Shown piece after piece: positions 2,920-9,546 of a stretch of 64,000 nt of DNA. Position numbers and translations under genes: made by a program. Each line of letters starts with the position of its first letter. Positions within the stretch are counted from its first letter, which is position 1. The DNA is from a virus, in the IMG/VR virus record IMGVR_UViG_3300032069_000005, positions 22,232-86,231 of that record; one strand, given 5' to 3'. Under the pieces are notes generated by a model. That model made no database searches. It saw only the letters and a program-made list of their open reading frames with translations, and was not told where the DNA came from.

Positions 2920-3962
2920 TGGGTAGAGGCAGACCGAAAGGAAGCAAAAATAAAAAAATAACAACTCCCAAAACAGTTACAGAACATATTCAGGAGCAAT
3001 CACCAAAAGTCAAGGAAATGATTAAAGAAGAAAAAGAGAAATTATCTAAAAAAAATGAGATTAACTCCGCACTCAGAAACTCGGTAAATGAACTTACAAA
3101 AAAATTTGGGCACGAAATCATTCACTTTGCTTCTGAAGAGCCGGAAAGAGAGAGAATTCCCACTGGAATACCTGAATTAGACAAGATGATTACTGGATTC
3201 CCTTCTGGTGCATTTTCAGTAATTTGGGGAAATAAAGGAAGCACAAAATCAACCACAGTATTGAATTTGATTGCTCAAGCACAGAAACTTGGAAAACAAT
3301 GCCTTTATTTAGATTTAGAAACCTCCTTTGATAATAAATGGGCGGATAAATGCGGAGTAGATAGAAATAAATTATTAATTGGTCATTTTGACAATGCTGA
3401 GCAAGCATTAGATACTGCAATAAAAATGAGCAAAGAGAAAGTTATAGATATAATTATATTAGACAGCGTCCAATCTCTTTCTCCCGAAGGAGAACAAGAA
3501 ACTAAGAAAGGCGAAACCAAAAGCACTGGCGACGACACTGTGGCTTTATTGGCGAGGAGATTAAGTCAATTTTTTAGAATGGATGCAGCAGGAAATTATA
3601 GAGGTAATATAACATTTATTTTAATCGGGCAAAGTAGGATGGATTTAAGCGGATATATTAAATTGGAAAAATTAAGTGGAGGAAAAGCAATCGCACATTG
3701 GGCTACTTTAATTATAAAGGCATATCGGTCAACTAAGGCAGATGCACCAAGATTTAAATTTGAAATCAAAGGTAAGAAAAAAGAAATCCCAATTGGATTT
3801 GAGATTTGTTATCGTTTAGAAAAAAAGAAGATTAGTGGAACTGCTCCTGAAGAAACAGAAGTAAGAGCAAATTTTTATAATGAATTTGGTTTTGTAGAAC
3901 CTACAGAAAAACAGATAAAAGAATTATATTCGGATTGGATTTCTTTTGAAGAAAATTCTTGA
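2919..3962 (+). CDS. RecA/UvsX-like recombinase
   Basis: IPTGIPELD, Walker A variant WGNKGSTKST, YLDLE, IILDSV, LLARRLSQFFR, SGGKAIAHWA. Confidence 0.9.
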   Translation: MGRGRPKGSKNKKITTPKTVTEHIQEQSPKVKEMIKEEKEKLSKKNEINSALRNSVNELTKKFGHEIIHFASEEPERERIPTGIPELDKMITGFPSGAFSVIWGNKGSTKSTTVLNLIAQAQKLGKQCLYLDLETSFDNKWADKCGVDRNKLLIGHFDNAEQALDTAIKMSKEKVIDIIILDSVQSLSPEGEQETKKGETKSTGDDTVALLARRLSQFFRMDAAGNYRGNITFILIGQSRMDLSGYIKLEKLSGGKAIAHWATLIIKAYRSTKADAPRFKFEIKGKKKEIPIGFEICYRLEKKKISGTAPEETEVRANFYNEFGFVEPTEKQIKELYSDWISFEENS

Positions 3963-4201
3963 TGAAAACTAAATATAAATATATTCAATTTGATTTGGTA
4001 GAACAAGATGAAACAAAGAAGACTCAAGCATATACCGTAAGAAATATAAGTCTTCAGATAATATTAGGTTATATAAAATGGTATGGTGCTTGGAGACAAT
4101 ATTGTTTCTTTCCAATGATAGGAACAATCTATAGCGAAGGATGTTTAAAAGATGTTGCAGATTTTATAAAACAATTAATGGAAGATAGGAAGAAGGGGTA
4201 A
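3959..4201 (+). CDS. hypothetical phage protein
   Basis: 80-aa coupled ORF containing LGYIKWYGAWRQYCFFP. Confidence 0.6.
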   Translation: MMKTKYKYIQFDLVEQDETKKTQAYTVRNISLQIILGYIKWYGAWRQYCFFPMIGTIYSEGCLKDVADFIKQLMEDRKKG

Positions 4202-4204
4202 TAA

Positions 4205-4519
4205 ATGTTTAAAGATATTATATATCAGATTTATTCGGATATAGAAATAAGAATTTATGAATTAGCAGACAAAAAAATACTTATTTTTATTATAGCTGCT
4301 TGGTTATTTAATTTACAAGATAAATTAATATTTAAATGGCTAAGATTGCAGTGTTGGTTATTTGGATGTGAAGAAAGGGGCGGATATGGGGGATTTAATC
4401 TTCCTTGTGATGCTTATTGCTTTTATTGTAATAGATGCGGAGCAACTTATAGTAATTATGAAGGAAACACCAATTATCATTTATTAAAAGGGATTTTTAA
4501 AAGAAAATATAATGCTTAA
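4205..4519 (+). CDS. hypothetical Cys-rich protein
   Basis: ORF with CxxC; overlaps the PolB start. Confidence 0.5.
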   Translation: MFKDIIYQIYSDIEIRIYELADKKILIFIIAAWLFNLQDKLIFKWLRLQCWLFGCEERGGYGGFNLPCDAYCFYCNRCGATYSNYEGNTNYHLLKGIFKRKYNA

Positions 4520-6752
4520 TCTTCCAATCCAAAATATATCCTCAATTGGTCGTGAAATAATTCTCTTTAATCGACAACAAAGCGGAGAGCTTACAATAAT
4601 GAGAGATTTATTGTTCAGTCCCTATTATTATGTTCCTTCTCCTACTGGAATATTTAGAGGATACTTTGGCGGAAAATATGATAAAGTTACTTGTAAAAAT
4701 CCCCGGGAAATAAAAGATAAACGAAATGTAAAAACAGATGGGGAAAGTGATGTTCCATATGTTCGTCGTTATCTACTTGATAAAGTAAATATAATTAAAT
4801 CTCCTACGAGATGGATTATGTTTGATATTGAGACTCTTAGTAAAATTGTTCCTAATCCATTGGTTGCCCCAGACCCAATTACTTCAATAACCGCATATGA
4901 TAATTATGAAAAAAAGTATATTCAATTTTGGTGCGAAAATTATCCATCTGAATATGAACTTATAGATGCGTTTATCAATTATATTAAGGAAAGGAAGCCA
5001 GATTTACTCCTGGCGTATAATATAAATGGATTTGATATGCCTTATTTGGTTACTCGTTTTTCTGACTTCGGAGAAAAGGTTAGCCCCATAGGACAAATTA
5101 AAAAAAGAAATGGATACCCAGAAGGAATCAGTATAGTCGACTATTATGAACTCATTAAAAAAGTATATAAATATAAGAGGCATACTTTAGATTTTATTTA
5201 TTCTGATGAATTTAAAGTTCCCCAGAATTTTATAAAATATAGATTTAATGAGATTAGCCCAATCATTAAAGAAAAGAATCTGGAAGATGTAAAAAAAATG
5301 GTCGCCTTAGAAAATAAATTGCATCTCATTGATTATTTTGATGAACAAAGGAGAATTGCAAAAGTTCTTTGGGAAGATTTATGTCATTTTAGTGTATCTA
5401 TCGATGGATTGATTTTGCAAACTGCGAAATCTAAAGGCGTAGTCTTACCGAGTAAACCAGACGAAGAAGAAAAACTTCGTCGAATAGAGGAAGATGAAAT
5501 CGAAGGCGGATATGTATTTGCCCAACCAGGAAAATATGATGACGCTTCTTTACTAGATATTTCTGGGACATACCCGAATCTAATTACTACATTTAATCTT
5601 GACCCTGTAAATAAGAAGAAAATCCCCAATTCGCAGACAGTAACTATCAGAAAAATCCACATAGAACAGAATCCCAACGCCATTGTGCCAACAGTTGCCA
5701 ATAGATTAATCGCTTCTCGTAAACAAATCCAAAAAGAACTCGAAGGAAAAACAGGCGAAGAATATGATTTATTAAAGAAAAAAGATGATGCACATAAATC
5801 GCTTAATAATGTGGTCTACGGGATTTTGCTTTTTAAGAATTCTCGTATATATGATAAAGACATCGCCGATTGCATTACCTATTTAGCGAGGTTCTTAATT
5901 CGATATACCAAATTTGCTTTAAGAAAATTGGGATATTCAGTCATTTCTTCAGACACCGATTCTATTTTTGTTCATTCCAGAGATTATGAGAAAATAGAAA
6001 AATTATGCAATGAAACATTAATTCCTAACTGGCTTAGACACTTTGGCAAAACAGAAGGAACTCTGAGATTTAAATATGAAGGATATTTTGAGAATGTTGT
6101 TTTTGAAGCACCAAAACATTACAGAGGCAATTTTGTTACTGCTAAGGGCGAACATAAAATGATAAATAAAGGCATCGAAATTGTTCGCAAAGATTCTTCT
6201 AAATTTCAAGAAGAATTTTTAGAGGAATTATATAATAGAATTTTAAAAAATGAAAGTGAGCAAACCATCTCTAATTGGATATTAGAACAAATAAAAGAAT
6301 TACCCAATAAACCATTGAAAAATATTGCATTTCCTTTTCAAATAGTCCAAAAAATTTATAATAGTATTCCTATATCTATTCGAGCACTTCAATATACTGA
6401 CGAAATAATTCCCAATTTTAGTCAAGATTATCATAATGAATTATATTATATTTATGTTAAACCATTTGGAACAGCAGAAAGACATTCCAAAAGTATGCGA
6501 AAGAATAAAGATACTGGAAAAAAGGAATTAAAAGAATCACATACTATAATAAATAAGAACGTCCTCGCCTTTGACGAAAATACTGACCACATAAAAGAAG
6601 TAGATTATTCAGAAATGATTAGACGCAATATTTTAGATAAGGCGGAAAAGCTCTTTGATGTTTTGGGATGGAATAAAGAATTGATTGGGATAAAAAAGAA
6701 AATTTCTAAAAAAGATGCAATTGCCGAACTCAAAAAAAGAGGATTATTATAA
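4512..6752 (+). CDS. polB: family B DNA polymerase
   Basis: Exo motifs FDIE and YNINGFD; polymerase motifs DISGTYPN, KSLNNVVYG, SDTDS, KGIEIVRKD. Confidence 0.95.
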   Translation: MLNLPIQNISSIGREIILFNRQQSGELTIMRDLLFSPYYYVPSPTGIFRGYFGGKYDKVTCKNPREIKDKRNVKTDGESDVPYVRRYLLDKVNIIKSPTRWIMFDIETLSKIVPNPLVAPDPITSITAYDNYEKKYIQFWCENYPSEYELIDAFINYIKERKPDLLLAYNINGFDMPYLVTRFSDFGEKVSPIGQIKKRNGYPEGISIVDYYELIKKVYKYKRHTLDFIYSDEFKVPQNFIKYRFNEISPIIKEKNLEDVKKMVALENKLHLIDYFDEQRRIAKVLWEDLCHFSVSIDGLILQTAKSKGVVLPSKPDEEEKLRRIEEDEIEGGYVFAQPGKYDDASLLDISGTYPNLITTFNLDPVNKKKIPNSQTVTIRKIHIEQNPNAIVPTVANRLIASRKQIQKELEGKTGEEYDLLKKKDDAHKSLNNVVYGILLFKNSRIYDKDIADCITYLARFLIRYTKFALRKLGYSVISSDTDSIFVHSRDYEKIEKLCNETLIPNWLRHFGKTEGTLRFKYEGYFENVVFEAPKHYRGNFVTAKGEHKMINKGIEIVRKDSSKFQEEFLEELYNRILKNESEQTISNWILEQIKELPNKPLKNIAFPFQIVQKIYNSIPISIRALQYTDEIIPNFSQDYHNELYYIYVKPFGTAERHSKSMRKNKDTGKKELKESHTIINKNVLAFDENTDHIKEVDYSEMIRRNILDKAEKLFDVLGWNKELIGIKKKISKKDAIAELKKRGLL

Positions 6753-6895
6753 TATGGATTTATCTAAATTATCTAATGAAGAATTAATGAAAATAGCGAA
6801 AATATCTCCTAAATTTGCGGGGGAAGTATCGAAAAAGATACTCCTTGCTTCCAGCGAGGAAGGTGGGGTGCAAGTCCCTAACCCCGCTCCAAATA
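6723..6895 (+). repeat. 173-bp exact direct repeat, copy 1 (end of upstream gene, mom 5' end, tRNA-like element)
   Basis: Identical to 7776-7948 (offset 1053). Confidence 0.95.
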
Positions 6896-7686
6896 AAGAA
6901 TTAATAATTAAAAAAAAAGAAGAATTGATGCACTCTGATTTTGATTCTTCAAATTTTATGATAGAATTAATTGAACCAAAAATGACATATGAGTGGATGA
7001 TGTATAAACATTATGCACATAAAATACCTCCGGTTATTAAATATTGTTACGGTTTATTTAAAAATAAACAACTCGTGGGGGTTTGTGTTTATGGAATATT
7101 GGCAAATAAAGAATATAATAATGGAAAATGTTTGTTTAAAAATTATCGAGTTGATGTTTTAGAATTAAAAAGATTAGTTGTAGATGATGATTTGCCAAAA
7201 AATACATTATCTTATTTTGTTTCAAAAACATTAAAAATGCTTCCACAACCAACGTGCGTTGTTAGTTATGCAGATAGTAATCAAAATCATCACGGATATA
7301 TTTATCAGGCTACCAATTGGTTATATACAGGTATGGGAAGAGGGAAATTAGCAATAATAGACAAATCAACGGGAGAGGAAATTCACGAGAAAACGATATA
7401 TGACAGGTATGGGACAAATAATATAGAAATTTTAAAAACTAAATTTGATTTTGATACAAAAATTTTAAAAGGAAAATATCGTTATTTAAAATTTATTGGA
7501 AATCATAAACAAAAAAAAGAAATGTTACACTCATTAAAATGGAAACTTTTTCCATATCCAAAAGGCGATAATATCAATTATGATGCTTCTTATAAAATTA
7601 AAAATTTAAATATAAATAAAAAAGGAATAATTCAGGAAAAGAGAGAGGAAGATAGACAGACAGAAAAACAGGAGGAAGAGAGATGA
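6754..7686 (+). CDS. mom: Mom-family (GNAT-fold) adenine modification enzyme, paralog 1
   Basis: KHYAH, VGVCVYG, LELKRL, PKNTLSYFVS, VSYADSNQNHHGYIYQATNWLYTG; ATG 6754 follows the PolB stop. Confidence 0.85.
   Translation: MDLSKLSNEELMKIAKISPKFAGEVSKKILLASSEEGGVQVPNPAPNKELIIKKKEELMHSDFDSSNFMIELIEPKMTYEWMMYKHYAHKIPPVIKYCYGLFKNKQLVGVCVYGILANKEYNNGKCLFKNYRVDVLELKRLVVDDDLPKNTLSYFVSKTLKMLPQPTCVVSYADSNQNHHGYIYQATNWLYTGMGRGKLAIIDKSTGEEIHEKTIYDRYGTNNIEILKTKFDFDTKILKGKYRYLKFIGNHKQKKEMLHSLKWKLFPYPKGDNINYDASYKIKNLNINKKGIIQEKREEDRQTEKQEEER
6817..6891 (+). tRNA. non-canonical tRNA-Gly(UCC)-like element within mom-1
   Basis: Cloverleaf: GCGGGGG-AA-GTATC/GAAAAA/GATAC-T-CCTTG/CTTCCAG/CGAGG-AAGG-TGGGG/TGCAAGT/CCCTA-ACCCCGC-T-CCA. 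Confidence 0.8.
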
Positions 7687-7688
7687 TA
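7626..7688 (+). repeat. 63-bp direct repeat at the mom 3' end, copy 1
   Basis: Matches 8643-8705 with one mismatch; encodes IIQEKREEDRQTEKQEEER*. Confidence 0.95.
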
Positions 7689-7805
7689 TTGAAATTTCAA
7701 CAACATAATGGTTGGGTATATGTTTCTGATTTATATAAAGTAGAAACCAGACAAATGTCAAAAAAAGAAGCACTCGCCGAACTCAAAAAAAGAGGATTAT
7801 TATAA
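7683..7805 (+). CDS. 40-aa chimeric ORF between the mom genes (possible remnant)
   Basis: MILKFQQHNGW...SKKEALAELKKRGLL*: N-terminus resembles ORF 8700, C-terminus equals that of PolB; GGAGG SD. Confidence 0.5.
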   Translation: MILKFQQHNGWVYVSDLYKVETRQMSKKEALAELKKRGLL

Positions 7806-7948
7806 TATGGATTTATCTAAATTATCTAATGAAGAATTAATGAAAATAGCGAAAATATCTCCTAAATTTGCGGGGGAAGTATCGAAAAAGATACTCCTTG
7901 CTTCCAGCGAGGAAGGTGGGGTGCAAGTCCCTAACCCCGCTCCAAATA
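7776..7948 (+). repeat. 173-bp exact direct repeat, copy 2
   Basis: Identical to 6723-6895. Confidence 0.95.
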
Positions 7949-8703
7949 TAAATAAAATCATAAAACAAAAATATGATAAAATACAAGACAATAAATCACA
8001 ATCGAAAGAGATAAAAAATTTTAATTTAAAAGATTTAAATATGAAAGAATTGGAATTTCAAATAACTAAAGAATTTATTGTTAAGAATCATTACAGTCAT
8101 ACAATTTCTTCATCTATAAAAGCAAGTATTGGATTTTTTTATAATAATAAATTAGTTACTGCTATTGTTTATGGTCATCCAATTGGAATTAATGTTGGTT
8201 CTTGGTTGCAAGTTCCTGAAGGAAGTTATGCCGAATTAATTAGAGTTTTTAGTGTTGATGAGTTACCAAAAAATACGGAAAGTTATTGTTTGGCAAAGTC
8301 ATTTGAATTTTTGAAGAAAAATAAACCAGAATTAAAATATTTAATTAGTTATGCAGACCCCACTCAAGGGCACGTAGGTTATATTTATCAAGCAACTAAT
8401 TGGTATTATGTTGGTAAACAGATAGGAATGGATAGAATTTTTAAAATTGATGGCAAACAAGTTCATAGAAGAACCGCCAATGCTGCTTATGGAACATCTT
8501 CAGTTAAAAAATTATCAGAATTATTAGGCAAAAGATTTGAAGTATCAATAACATATCCAAAACACATTTATTTAATGTGTTTGGGTTCTCGTAAAGAAAA
8601 AAAAGAATGGTATAATAAATTCAAACAATTACCATATCCTAAAATAATTCAAGAAAAGAGAGAGGAAGATAGACAGACAGAAAAACAGGAGGAAGAGAGA
8701 TGA
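7807..8703 (+). CDS. mom: Mom-family adenine modification enzyme, paralog 2
   Basis: KNHYSH, AIVYG, AELIRV, PKNTESYCL, ISYADPTQGHVGYIYQATNWYYVG. Confidence 0.85.
   Translation: MDLSKLSNEELMKIAKISPKFAGEVSKKILLASSEEGGVQVPNPAPNINKIIKQKYDKIQDNKSQSKEIKNFNLKDLNMKELEFQITKEFIVKNHYSHTISSSIKASIGFFYNNKLVTAIVYGHPIGINVGSWLQVPEGSYAELIRVFSVDELPKNTESYCLAKSFEFLKKNKPELKYLISYADPTQGHVGYIYQATNWYYVGKQIGMDRIFKIDGKQVHRRTANAAYGTSSVKKLSELLGKRFEVSITYPKHIYLMCLGSRKEKKEWYNKFKQLPYPKIIQEKREEDRQTEKQEEER
7870..7944 (+). tRNA. non-canonical tRNA-Gly(UCC)-like element within mom-2
   Basis: Identical to 6817-6891. Confidence 0.8.
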
Positions 8704-8705
8704 TA
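8643..8705 (+). repeat. 63-bp direct repeat, copy 2
   Basis: Matches 7626-7688. Confidence 0.95.
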
Positions 8706-8963
8706 GTAAAAATTATTCAAGAAAATGGAGCATTGTTTTATGATGGATTTGAAAAAATCAGATATGAATATAAAACCAGTGAAGAAATGGAAACCATCGA
8801 TACAAACGCTATGTGGATAAACAGTAAGTTGCCTCTGAGCGGAATTTTGATTATAGGTCGTAGAAAACCGATAATTGGAACTGACCCAGAATTTACTATT
8901 AGAACAAATGGGGAGACATATCTTCTTAATGATGAAGGTAAGACGATAGAAAGGATTAGATAA
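8700..8963 (+). CDS. hypothetical phage protein
   Basis: ATGA-coupled to mom-2; ends YLLNDEGKTIERI. Confidence 0.65.
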   Translation: MIVKIIQENGALFYDGFEKIRYEYKTSEEMETIDTNAMWINSKLPLSGILIIGRRKPIIGTDPEFTIRTNGETYLLNDEGKTIERIR

Positions 8964-8967
8964 AACA

Positions 8968-9546
8968 ATGATTTCTCTTCTTCTCTCTAAACTTGAAAAG
9001 AATCTTGGATTGAAACTTCGTAAGAATGTAATGTGCCTCGGAGTTGATACTGCTTCAACTACTGGACTGGCTCTTATTTCTACTTTTGGGGGAAAAGCAA
9101 TAATCGATTATTCTATTTTTAAATTACCCTCAATTCCCCGAAAAATAGCTGACCAAATGTTAAAGGCGGAAAAATACGAGCAAGCAATGGACAGTGCTCT
9201 TAATTTAATTAGAGATTATAAAAAAGAAATGAAAATTAAATCCCCATCTATTTTGATATTGGAGCAATCTTTTCTTTTAATGAGTCCAGAAACTTTTGGT
9301 TATCTTAGAAGTCTTGGGGGTGTTTTCTATTCTGAACTTTATGATTCGTTTGATGAGATAAAATTTTATCTTCCTGGAGTTGCAAGAAAATTAGTTGGAT
9401 TTCACTCAAATTTAAAAAGAGGAACTCCAACAGACCAAAAGAAAAAAGAAATAGTAGATTGGATTTCTAATGTAGTAGGAGAAAAGATTAAAGACCATAA
9501 TATTGCGGATTCCATCCTATTATCACTTGCGGGGATAAGATTATGA
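8968..9546 (+). CDS. RuvC-like nuclease/resolvase
   Basis: LGVDTASTTGLA, ILEQ, HNIADSILL (RNase H-fold acidic residues). Confidence 0.75.
   Translation: MISLLLSKLEKNLGLKLRKNVMCLGVDTASTTGLALISTFGGKAIIDYSIFKLPSIPRKIADQMLKAEKYEQAMDSALNLIRDYKKEMKIKSPSILILEQSFLLMSPETFGYLRSLGGVFYSELYDSFDEIKFYLPGVARKLVGFHSNLKRGTPTDQKKKEIVDWISNVVGEKIKDHNIADSILLSLAGIRL

Follow-up and report, generated by a model that had tools for sequence, protein, structure and literature searches.

Within a 64,000-nucleotide stretch of viral DNA (hereafter, the window: bases 22232-86231 of the 86,231-bp IMG/VR virus record IMGVR_UViG_3300032069_000005; ca. 30% G+C, estimated completeness of 86%), two tandem genes for DNA-modifying enzymes of the Mom family, mom1 and mom2, each enclose an identical copy of a 75-nt element resembling tRNA-Gly(UCC) (Table 1). 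Sequence and comparative analyses indicate that this element is a genuine gene for a structured RNA, derived from tRNA-Gly and lying within the reading frame of mom. We lean towards the view that it would serve as a glycyl carrier, co-transcribed with mom, charged by the host glycyl-tRNA synthetase (GlyRS), poorly used by the ribosome and feeding Mom.

The original prediction, made from the sequence alone, proposed a 75-nt cloverleaf in each of the two mom genes, and this was borne out: the copies are identical, both open reading frames (ORFs) belong to the Pfam Mom family, and the minimum free energy fold of the element is a cloverleaf of -33.9 kcal/mol (z = -3.37), a stability reached by none of 200 shuffled sequences. 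The element spans nt 64-138 of each mom ORF, exactly 25 codons, and has 57% G+C against 27% in its 500-nt flanks. It folds into four arms; the acceptor stem has 7 bp, and the anticodon and T loops have 7 nt each. The features listed in the prediction could all be read off the sequence or the ARAGORN drawing. They include the anticodon UCC, which we find in a canonical 7-nt loop (CUUCCAG) with U33 and A37, an encoded CCA, and the complete bacterial identity set for glycine, namely U73, G1-C72, C2-G71, C35 and C36 (Giege & Eriani 2023, PMC9976931), together with G3-C70. They also include several departures from conserved tRNA features: A8 in place of U8, a D-loop (CGAAAAAG) without GG, a T-loop UGCAAGU with GUGC (G53-U54-G55-C56), and a G7-A66 mismatch in the acceptor stem.

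As had been anticipated, standard tRNA finders miss the element. ARAGORN with default settings reported no tRNA in the window, and Rfam RF00005 gave no match at E<=10 on positions 6500-8300 or on a 101-nt slice, nor any in the whole 86-kb record, the same model being positive in 14 of 14 control genomes. The low-threshold check that had been suggested did retrieve it, since ARAGORN at 90% threshold (-ps90) called exactly these two tRNA-Gly(tcc) in positions 6001-9000 and nothing else. Likewise, model R2 matched the 86-kb record exactly twice, at the two copies of the element, and the record contains no canonical tRNA. The sole tRNA-related Rfam match of the element was the tymovirus family RF00233, with 15.5-15.7 bits for a gathering score of 40.

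Comparison with other genomes points to selection on the element at the RNA level, with structure rather than protein being conserved. Among 24 viral loci with relatives of mom1, the N-terminal extension that holds the element is shared by L003 and L004 only; their alignment displays the same cloverleaf with rewritten stems, the anticodon stem changing from CCUUG/CGAGG to CGGAA/UUCCG. Both loci carry A3.C70 plus G5.U68 in the acceptor stem, and a compensatory A3-U70 occurs in L047 and L053. These last two and L089, retrieved by a loop-pattern scan of viral contigs, and L135, from a metagenome scan, are further members of the same element family. In a set of five sequences of this family, 94.3% of 105 cells are paired, and changes on both sides are seen in 8 of 21 pairs; the observed value was reached by none of 500 shuffles on four of five measures and by 9 of 500 on the fifth, and slid controls gave 35-51% of paired cells and at most three pairs changed on both sides. 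When the set was widened to several lineages (20 distinct elements), pairing held in 97.6% of 419 cells and 18 of 21 pairs changed on both sides, values that no shuffle out of 500 reached, although this alignment (A5) was fitted to model R1 and its loops and part of its 3' end were fixed by the search patterns; the slid controls here gave 28-50%. The homologous mom loci, which had been put forward as the place to look for a covarying Gly cloverleaf, do contain one, with compensatory changes, and the element tracks Mom across unrelated lineages.

The distribution of changes along codons adds to this picture. The 22 variable positions of the element fall on codon positions 1/2/3 as 9/5/8, with no bias towards the third; in the Mom domain, the corresponding counts are 24/16/75 (mom2 versus L047) and 68/54/95 (mom1 versus L003). 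The anticodon loop is read as GCT-TCC-AGC in the family of the window and as GGC-TTC-CAG in two families with the element at the 3' end of mom; because these 3'-end families use another frame, the peptide encoded by the element varies by lineage and the fold does not. The leader that precedes the element nevertheless bears signs of translation: a conserved GAGGA is found 8-10 nt 5' of the ATG, a TCT to AGT change maintains Ser, and a 9-nt indel is in frame. In addition, the part of L003 that separates the element from the Mom domain lacks any in-frame ATG, GTG or TTG. With a translated leader and an element conserved as RNA, this stretch is therefore dual-coding. An extreme arrangement is seen in L089 (oriented 2952-6176), where the family-B DNA polymerase (PolB), the element and Mom form one unbroken open frame of 1074 codons, with no separate leader or start for mom.

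The element is found next to mom genes well beyond the relatives of mom1. Using a search pattern consisting of two loop sequences only, three scans yielded 127 loci, reduced to 97 distinct places; the viral-contig scan contributed 94 stretches. Model R1 matched, as cloverleaves, at 36 of the 97 places. A Mom ORF overlaps the element or lies within 64 nt of it, on the same strand, at 23 of these 36, whereas none of the 61 places without an R1 match has a Mom ORF in its locus, the Mom calls being made with a home-built hidden Markov model whose seeds include element-encoded peptides. With Pfam (PF25680, curated cut-off of 27.1 bits), these calls were upheld for both window genes and for L133, L136 and L147, and a fragment at a contig end in L112 scored 26.9 bits. 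Two of the other R1 places (L096 and L123) have a DAM-like-phage1 plus GNAT-phage-like gene beside the element, and eleven, mostly tRNA arrays of large phages, lack Mom in the fetched locus. The same linkage is displayed by elements of 63-71% G+C (L153, L136, L096 and L133).

To avoid the bias of the loop pattern, we also assembled a set of loci on the basis of protein similarity alone, with a Mom of the L031 type as a query, taking the best 80 of 125 loci, with duplicates kept and many of them from one sample, and searched it with model R2. A match was located at 200 nt or less 3' of the Mom domain, on the same strand, in 42 of these best 80 of 125 loci, and was wholly within the open frame in 16. 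Three of the 80 have the match directly downstream on the opposite strand, four have it about 420-470 nt downstream on the same strand, and ten contain a near-canonical tRNA-Gly about 1.2 kb upstream of Mom. The element is common but facultative among Mom loci. Its position differs between lineages: some have it in the 5' coding region and others in the 3' coding region, whereas in L037 it lies in the 5' untranslated region and in L112 it overlaps the stop codon. This variability fits a trans-acting product better than a positional operator.

After removing four rows corresponding to another, further-upstream tRNA type, the protein-defined set comprises 29 distinct sequences. All 29 keep the GC start, GC-U73 at the 3' side and CC at positions 35-36; in the R1 alignment, G1-C72, C2-G71, U73 and C35/C36 are likewise invariant in 20 of 20 distinct elements. 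The D-loop GG is absent in 19 of the 29 and G occupies position 55 in 18, with the T loop starting with TGC (12 sequences), CGC (5), GGC (1), AGA (1) or TTC (10). Eight of the ten elements with a TTC T loop have a base other than U at position 33 (seven A, with the loop CAUCCUG, and one C). Several of the 29 have anticodon loops of 6 or 8 nt, and many carry a bulged base in the T stem. The altered features (D-loop GG, U55, U8, U33 and others) are generally considered universal for decoding or for the tRNA elbow, and the lineages would thus have broken decoding in different ways while keeping chargeability. A Mom-linked tRNA-Gly variant found in L172 (1926-2000) and in some 20 similar loci keeps the D-loop GG and a TTC T loop and has A33 (CAUCCUG) and a bulged base in the T stem; it is a different route to a tRNA that probably cannot decode.

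The proteins encoded by mom1 and mom2 score far above the Pfam cut-off (Table 1) and both matched the structure of phage Mu Mom (PDB 8bv8; E 5e-14 and 1.3e-17, respectively). They show 45% identity to each other overall, shared ends counted in; mom1 is 54% identical to the single Mom of L003 and mom2 76.5% identical to that of L047. Mu Mom transfers glycine from Gly-tRNAGly to the N6 of dA in double-stranded DNA and is thought to read mainly the acceptor end of the tRNA (Silva et al. 2026, Nat Commun, PMC13219725), in agreement with the donor named in the original prediction. Its activity needs R111, S124, D149 and R151, and its active site also includes H58, Y59 and Y159 (PMC13219725). Mapping the Mu numbering via H58/Y59/W48 and the S124A residue of 8bv8, both window proteins keep six of these seven residues (H58, Y59, R111, S124, D149 and Y159), with R151 replaced by N in mom1 and by T in mom2. 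That position is G, C or T in the other Mom lineages examined; as it varies across Moms, it would not be a family-wide catalytic residue. With the other six residues kept, both window enzymes look active. Although they belong to the same Pfam family as Mu Mom, they differ from it by an N-terminal extension of 60-75 residues, and their genes embed a tRNA-Gly-like element, whereas Mu brings no tRNA and draws on any isoacceptor of its host.

A tRNA-Gly-like locus embedded in mom is already known as an object since 2011. In the ssrA genomic islands of Dehalococcoides, a 76-bp locus of this kind lies within the first 150 bp of a mom homologue (McMurdie et al. 2011, BMC Genomics 12:287, PMC3146451). 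It forms a complete tRNA-Gly-like cloverleaf with anticodon DCC, conserved in 16 islands and one marine fosmid; annotation pipelines labelled it a 'pseudo-tRNA', no function was proposed in the sections dealing with it, and Mom was then thought to methylate (PMC3146451). The window element agrees with that description in its complete tRNA-Gly-like fold, its NCC anticodon and its location in the first 150 bp of a Mom-family ORF; they differ in that the Dehalococcoides host is a bacterial integrative island and the window belongs to a lytic-type phage with a PolB. The functional link to glycyl donation is new with respect to the sources consulted: no statement tying a Mom-linked tRNA to the donation of glycine turned up in the literature searched, nor in passages of Silva 2023/2026, of the paper on jumbo phages by Iyer (2021) and of a meeting report from 2025, supplements being outside this scope, and the main text of Silva 2026 (PMC13219725) makes no mention of tRNA-like elements, Dehalococcoides or linked tRNA genes.

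A precedent for a tRNA-Gly that works off the ribosome exists in staphylococci. Their non-proteogenic tRNAGly(UCC) species NP1-NP3 have TGC or TGT for TTC in the T loop, a dihydrouridine at position 19 and weak EF-Tu binding (Rietmeyer et al. 2020, PMC7826273), which bears out the missing D-loop GG and the GUGC that the original prediction had ascribed to them. They are charged by the normal GlyRS and feed the Fem peptidyl transferases of cell-wall synthesis (PMC7826273). The window element has in common with them the UCC anticodon, the TGC T loop (and hence no pseudouridine-55) and the lack of G19; in contrast, the staphylococcal genes are free-standing chromosomal tRNA genes, whereas the window element resides in the frame of its presumed user enzyme and shows A8 and G7.A66. 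The resemblance looks convergent. A viral tRNA mimic that can be aminoacylated within an mRNA is represented by the tymovirus element RF00233, with which the window element shares the T-arm GGGUGCAA.UCCC, although the former is 3'-terminal, pseudoknotted and valine-specific and the latter is an internal, standard four-arm cloverleaf.

The carrier interpretation would comprise a sequence of steps. The element would be transcribed together with polB and mom; host tRNA-processing enzymes would excise it from part of the transcripts; host GlyRS would glycylate the excised RNA; poor binding to EF-Tu and the ribosome would leave the glycyl-RNA available as a donor; and the two Mom enzymes would take its glycine to the N6 of adenine in phage DNA. 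Since excision would cut between the start codon of mom and the part encoding the catalytic domain, a given transcript could give rise to carrier or to enzyme but not to both, and because it severs the message only part of the transcripts could be processed, so that the supplies of carrier and enzyme would be inversely coupled. We favour this explanation because the requirements of GlyRS and the acceptor end are kept (G1-C72, C2-G71, U73, C35, C36 and CCA) while decoding features are lost (U8, the G18-G19/U55 elbow contacts, and pairing at the acceptor/T-stem junction, with its G7.A66 mismatch), and because the element combines linkage to Mom, varied position, the staphylococcal and Mu precedents and the lack of any other tRNA in the record. 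The comparative tests of the carrier interpretation in the original prediction came out in its favour, but the description of the cassette as 'self-contained' was too strong, as it would still depend on the GlyRS and the processing enzymes of the host. The prediction also overlooked that freeing the tRNA would sever the mom mRNA ahead of the part encoding the catalytic domain.

Several observations weigh against a dedicated carrier, besides the dependence of the 20-element alignment on its own model. All three E. coli tRNAGly isoacceptors serve Mu Mom (PMC13219725), so that Mu needs no private tRNA. No R2 match was found within 1.5 kb in 21 of the best 80 of 125 protein-defined loci, which belong to another Mom clade, and 22 of the 24 Mom loci nearest to mom1 yielded neither an R1 match nor an ARAGORN tRNA. 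Release of the element would cut the mom mRNA and, in L089, would leave the polB message without a stop codon, which would be a heavy price for a carrier; and, the leader being translated, at least some transcripts must stay uncut. Moreover, A8, the missing elbow and G7.A66 might also impair RNase P or GlyRS, and the A3.C70 and G5.U68 of L003 and L004 are in the very acceptor stem. Finally, GGA is the main glycine codon of the phage (451 of 823, counted in the 37 ORFs with at least 200 aa), and a UCC anticodon would therefore also suit translation.

Among the alternatives, the one that survives best is a cis-acting tRNA mimic kept in the mRNA to control mom, either through RNase P cleavage inactivating most transcripts of a toxic enzyme or as a feedback operator for Mom or GlyRS, with no free carrier that matters; we consider it unlikely, if worth serious attention. 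Mu holds mom under tight translational control, and in the family of the window the start codon and the catalytic domain are separated by the element, so that cleavage or binding must affect translation; in L112 and the families with a 3' element, the message would lose its stop codon on cleavage. A reader of the U73/G71 acceptor end, such as the GNAT protein TacT (PMC9976931), could also explain the conservation of that end. However, the 5' coding, 5' untranslated, 3' coding and post-stop positions hardly fit a single positional mechanism, less so with the element on the opposite strand just downstream in three, and about 420-470 nt away in four, of the best 80 of 125 loci. Furthermore, C35/C36 never change in the 29 sequences, in contrast to the drifting positions 33 and 34, which points to anticodon reading by a synthetase and would be needless for an acceptor-end binder, and similar elements also occur free in phage tRNA arrays.

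It is quite improbable that we are dealing with a phage tRNA-Gly(UCC) of the usual kind, albeit an odd one, that aids the translation of GGA-rich genes and is adjacent to mom only through genome compaction. Phage tRNAs are often deviant, the 451 of 823 glycine codons that are GGA would give it work, and the window element does keep a canonical 7-nt anticodon loop with U33 and A37. Nonetheless, it lacks G18-G19, U55 and U8, and its RF00005 score is below the reporting level; it is the sole tRNA-like gene of the 86-kb record, present twice and each time in mom; the same linkage recurs in the elements of 63-71% G+C (L153, L136, L096 and L133); and in many Mom-linked relatives position 33 is A, G or C, or the anticodon loop has 6 or 8 nt. 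Very unlikely, and the weakest of the three, is a DNA-level feature or relic (a captured fragment of a tRNA gene where recombination or integration would swap mom cassettes, or a pseudo-tRNA in decay and devoid of RNA function): the element does lie within exact 173-nt repeats around two different Mom cores, a layout inviting cassette exchange by homologous recombination, and its Dehalococcoides counterpart was annotated as 'pseudo-tRNA', but a DNA site would conserve sequence and not pairing, when 18 of 21 pairs change on both sides with pairing kept, a relic would not hold 97.6% of cells paired, and loops and identity nucleotides are invariant across lineages whose Mom proteins are only 24-38% identical.

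A broader generalisation of the carrier interpretation is possible but doubtful as a whole. Mom genes in many phages and mobile islands would carry dedicated glycyl carriers, in or against their own frame, chargeable by GlyRS and with decoding disabled in various ways (G55 and no D-loop GG, a base other than U33, or a bulge in the T stem); the ratio of carrier to enzyme would be set by a single dual-coding transcript; and the same carrier beside DAM-like plus GNAT-phage-like genes would mark a second tRNA-dependent family. The loci on which this last point bears are L096 (4756-4830, minus strand) and L123 (4499-4574, minus strand), where a deviant tRNA-Gly(UCC) is found at, or some 100 nt before, fusion genes combining DAM-like-phage1 and GNAT-phage-like domains (PF22555 + PF22559); one is in a viral contig of 71% G+C and the other in the genome of Streptomyces hokutonensis, beside a PAPS-reductase-like gene. 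We rejected the identification of GNAT-phage-like as a Mom, because BLASTP comparison gave no significant similarity (E 0.03 over 17 residues). These fusions may be a second tRNA-dependent family of DNA-modifying enzymes.

If the carrier interpretation is right, Mom would be the first DNA-modifying enzyme that brings its own aminoacyl carrier, this would be a second, independent invention of a ribosome-avoiding tRNA-Gly after the staphylococcal cell-wall tRNAs, and the 'pseudo-tRNA' known since 2011 with no function assigned to it would acquire one. The element would also be a clear natural example of dual coding, with 25 codons under selection at the RNA and not the protein level. In practice, linkage to a deviant tRNA could single out the users of aminoacyl-tRNA among uncharacterised GNAT genes, with the DAM-like plus GNAT-phage-like fusions as the first candidate, and metagenomic Mom homologues expressed or assayed with host tRNA alone may miss their natural co-substrate.

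Table 1. Features of the mom region of the window (positions are those of the window)
Feature	Position	Strand	Description
PolB (family-B DNA polymerase)	4512-6752	+	746 aa; Pfam DNA_pol_B, E 1e-31
mom1	6754-7686	+	310 aa; Mom-family GNAT; Pfam Mom PF25680, E 2.1e-38, 132.5 bits; Mom domain from residue 68
tRNA-Gly(UCC)-like element, copy 1	6817-6891	+	75 nt; codons 22-46 of mom1; model R1 97.9 bits, model R2 84.1 bits
mom2	7807-8703	+	298 aa; Mom-family GNAT; PF25680, E 3e-41, 141.8 bits; Mom domain from residue 77
tRNA-Gly(UCC)-like element, copy 2	7870-7944	+	identical to copy 1; codons 22-46 of mom2
Exact 173-nt repeat	6723-6895 = 7776-7948	+	PolB end, GAGGA, ATG, 21-codon leader, element
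GAGGA	6739-6743; 7792-7796	+	10 nt 5' of mom1 ATG; before mom2; kept 8 nt before ATG in L003
Exact 53-nt repeat	7636-7688 = 8653-8705	+	closes both mom genes; encodes shared acidic tail and start of next ORF
40-codon junction ORF	7684-7805	+	start resembles ORF at 8700; end resembles PolB C-terminus

The two mom genes are arranged between exact repeats. The junction ORF between them mixes the start of the downstream ORF with a PolB-like end, and is therefore the mark of a tandem duplication. We examined this arrangement in run X1, a DNA sediment metagenome kept as contigs that is the sole public run with the stretch, and probably its source sample, so that it gives no independent support. No run registered as RNA is listed with this DNA. 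In this run, the 173-nt repeat (6723-6895) forms its own Logan unitig with a depth of 58.5, versus 17.7-22.7 in the flanks, and the junction (7659-7805) exists as a separate unitig; no piece spans the whole tandem, and positions 8691-9500 are without cover. An assembly artefact merging two strains was rejected as the sole cause of the tandem, because the junction unitig holds sequence present in neither flank. In our reading, the tandem is genuine, and its identical flanks are the site of concerted evolution or of an exchange of cassettes. Two different Mom cores lie between exact 173-nt (5') and 53-nt (3') repeats (6723-8705), a layout that would allow swapping or homogenisation of Mom cassettes by recombination. 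The acidic C-terminal tail common to mom1 and mom2 is absent from the Moms of L003 and L047.

The PolB stop codon ends one base 5' of the mom1 ATG, and polB and mom1 are therefore probably co-transcribed. A promoter and terminator scan of positions 6300-9100 found no terminator-like site on the plus strand; it was otherwise uninformative, with a single terminator-like site, on the minus strand, and 22 promoter-like sites where 15.8 +/- 3.2 were expected. The best matches of PolB in the phage GenBank collection were gp43 proteins of T4-like cyanophages, with only 23% identity, placing the phage outside every lineage represented in that collection. A blastn search with positions 6700-7700 retrieved no match from the same collection, and an exact 30-mer covering the T arm and acceptor end had no match in viral_contigs, a collection that may omit the record of the window itself.

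The tRNA arrays of large phages contain paired deviant Gly-like tRNAs with anticodons UCC and ACC, both ending in GCUCCA and having non-TTC T loops. Such pairs were seen at L036 (5073-5229, minus strand), L059, L061, L078, L085, L095, L108, L118, L126, L129, L139 and L140, with no Mom in the fetched loci; one record of a phage with such an array (27% complete) gave no Mom match, and neither did 14 control genomes. As for PolB, its homologue in L003 (17-3001, plus strand) has 994 aa versus 746 aa in the window, and the ca. 250 extra residues, in the middle of the protein, resemble an intein/homing-endonuclease insertion.

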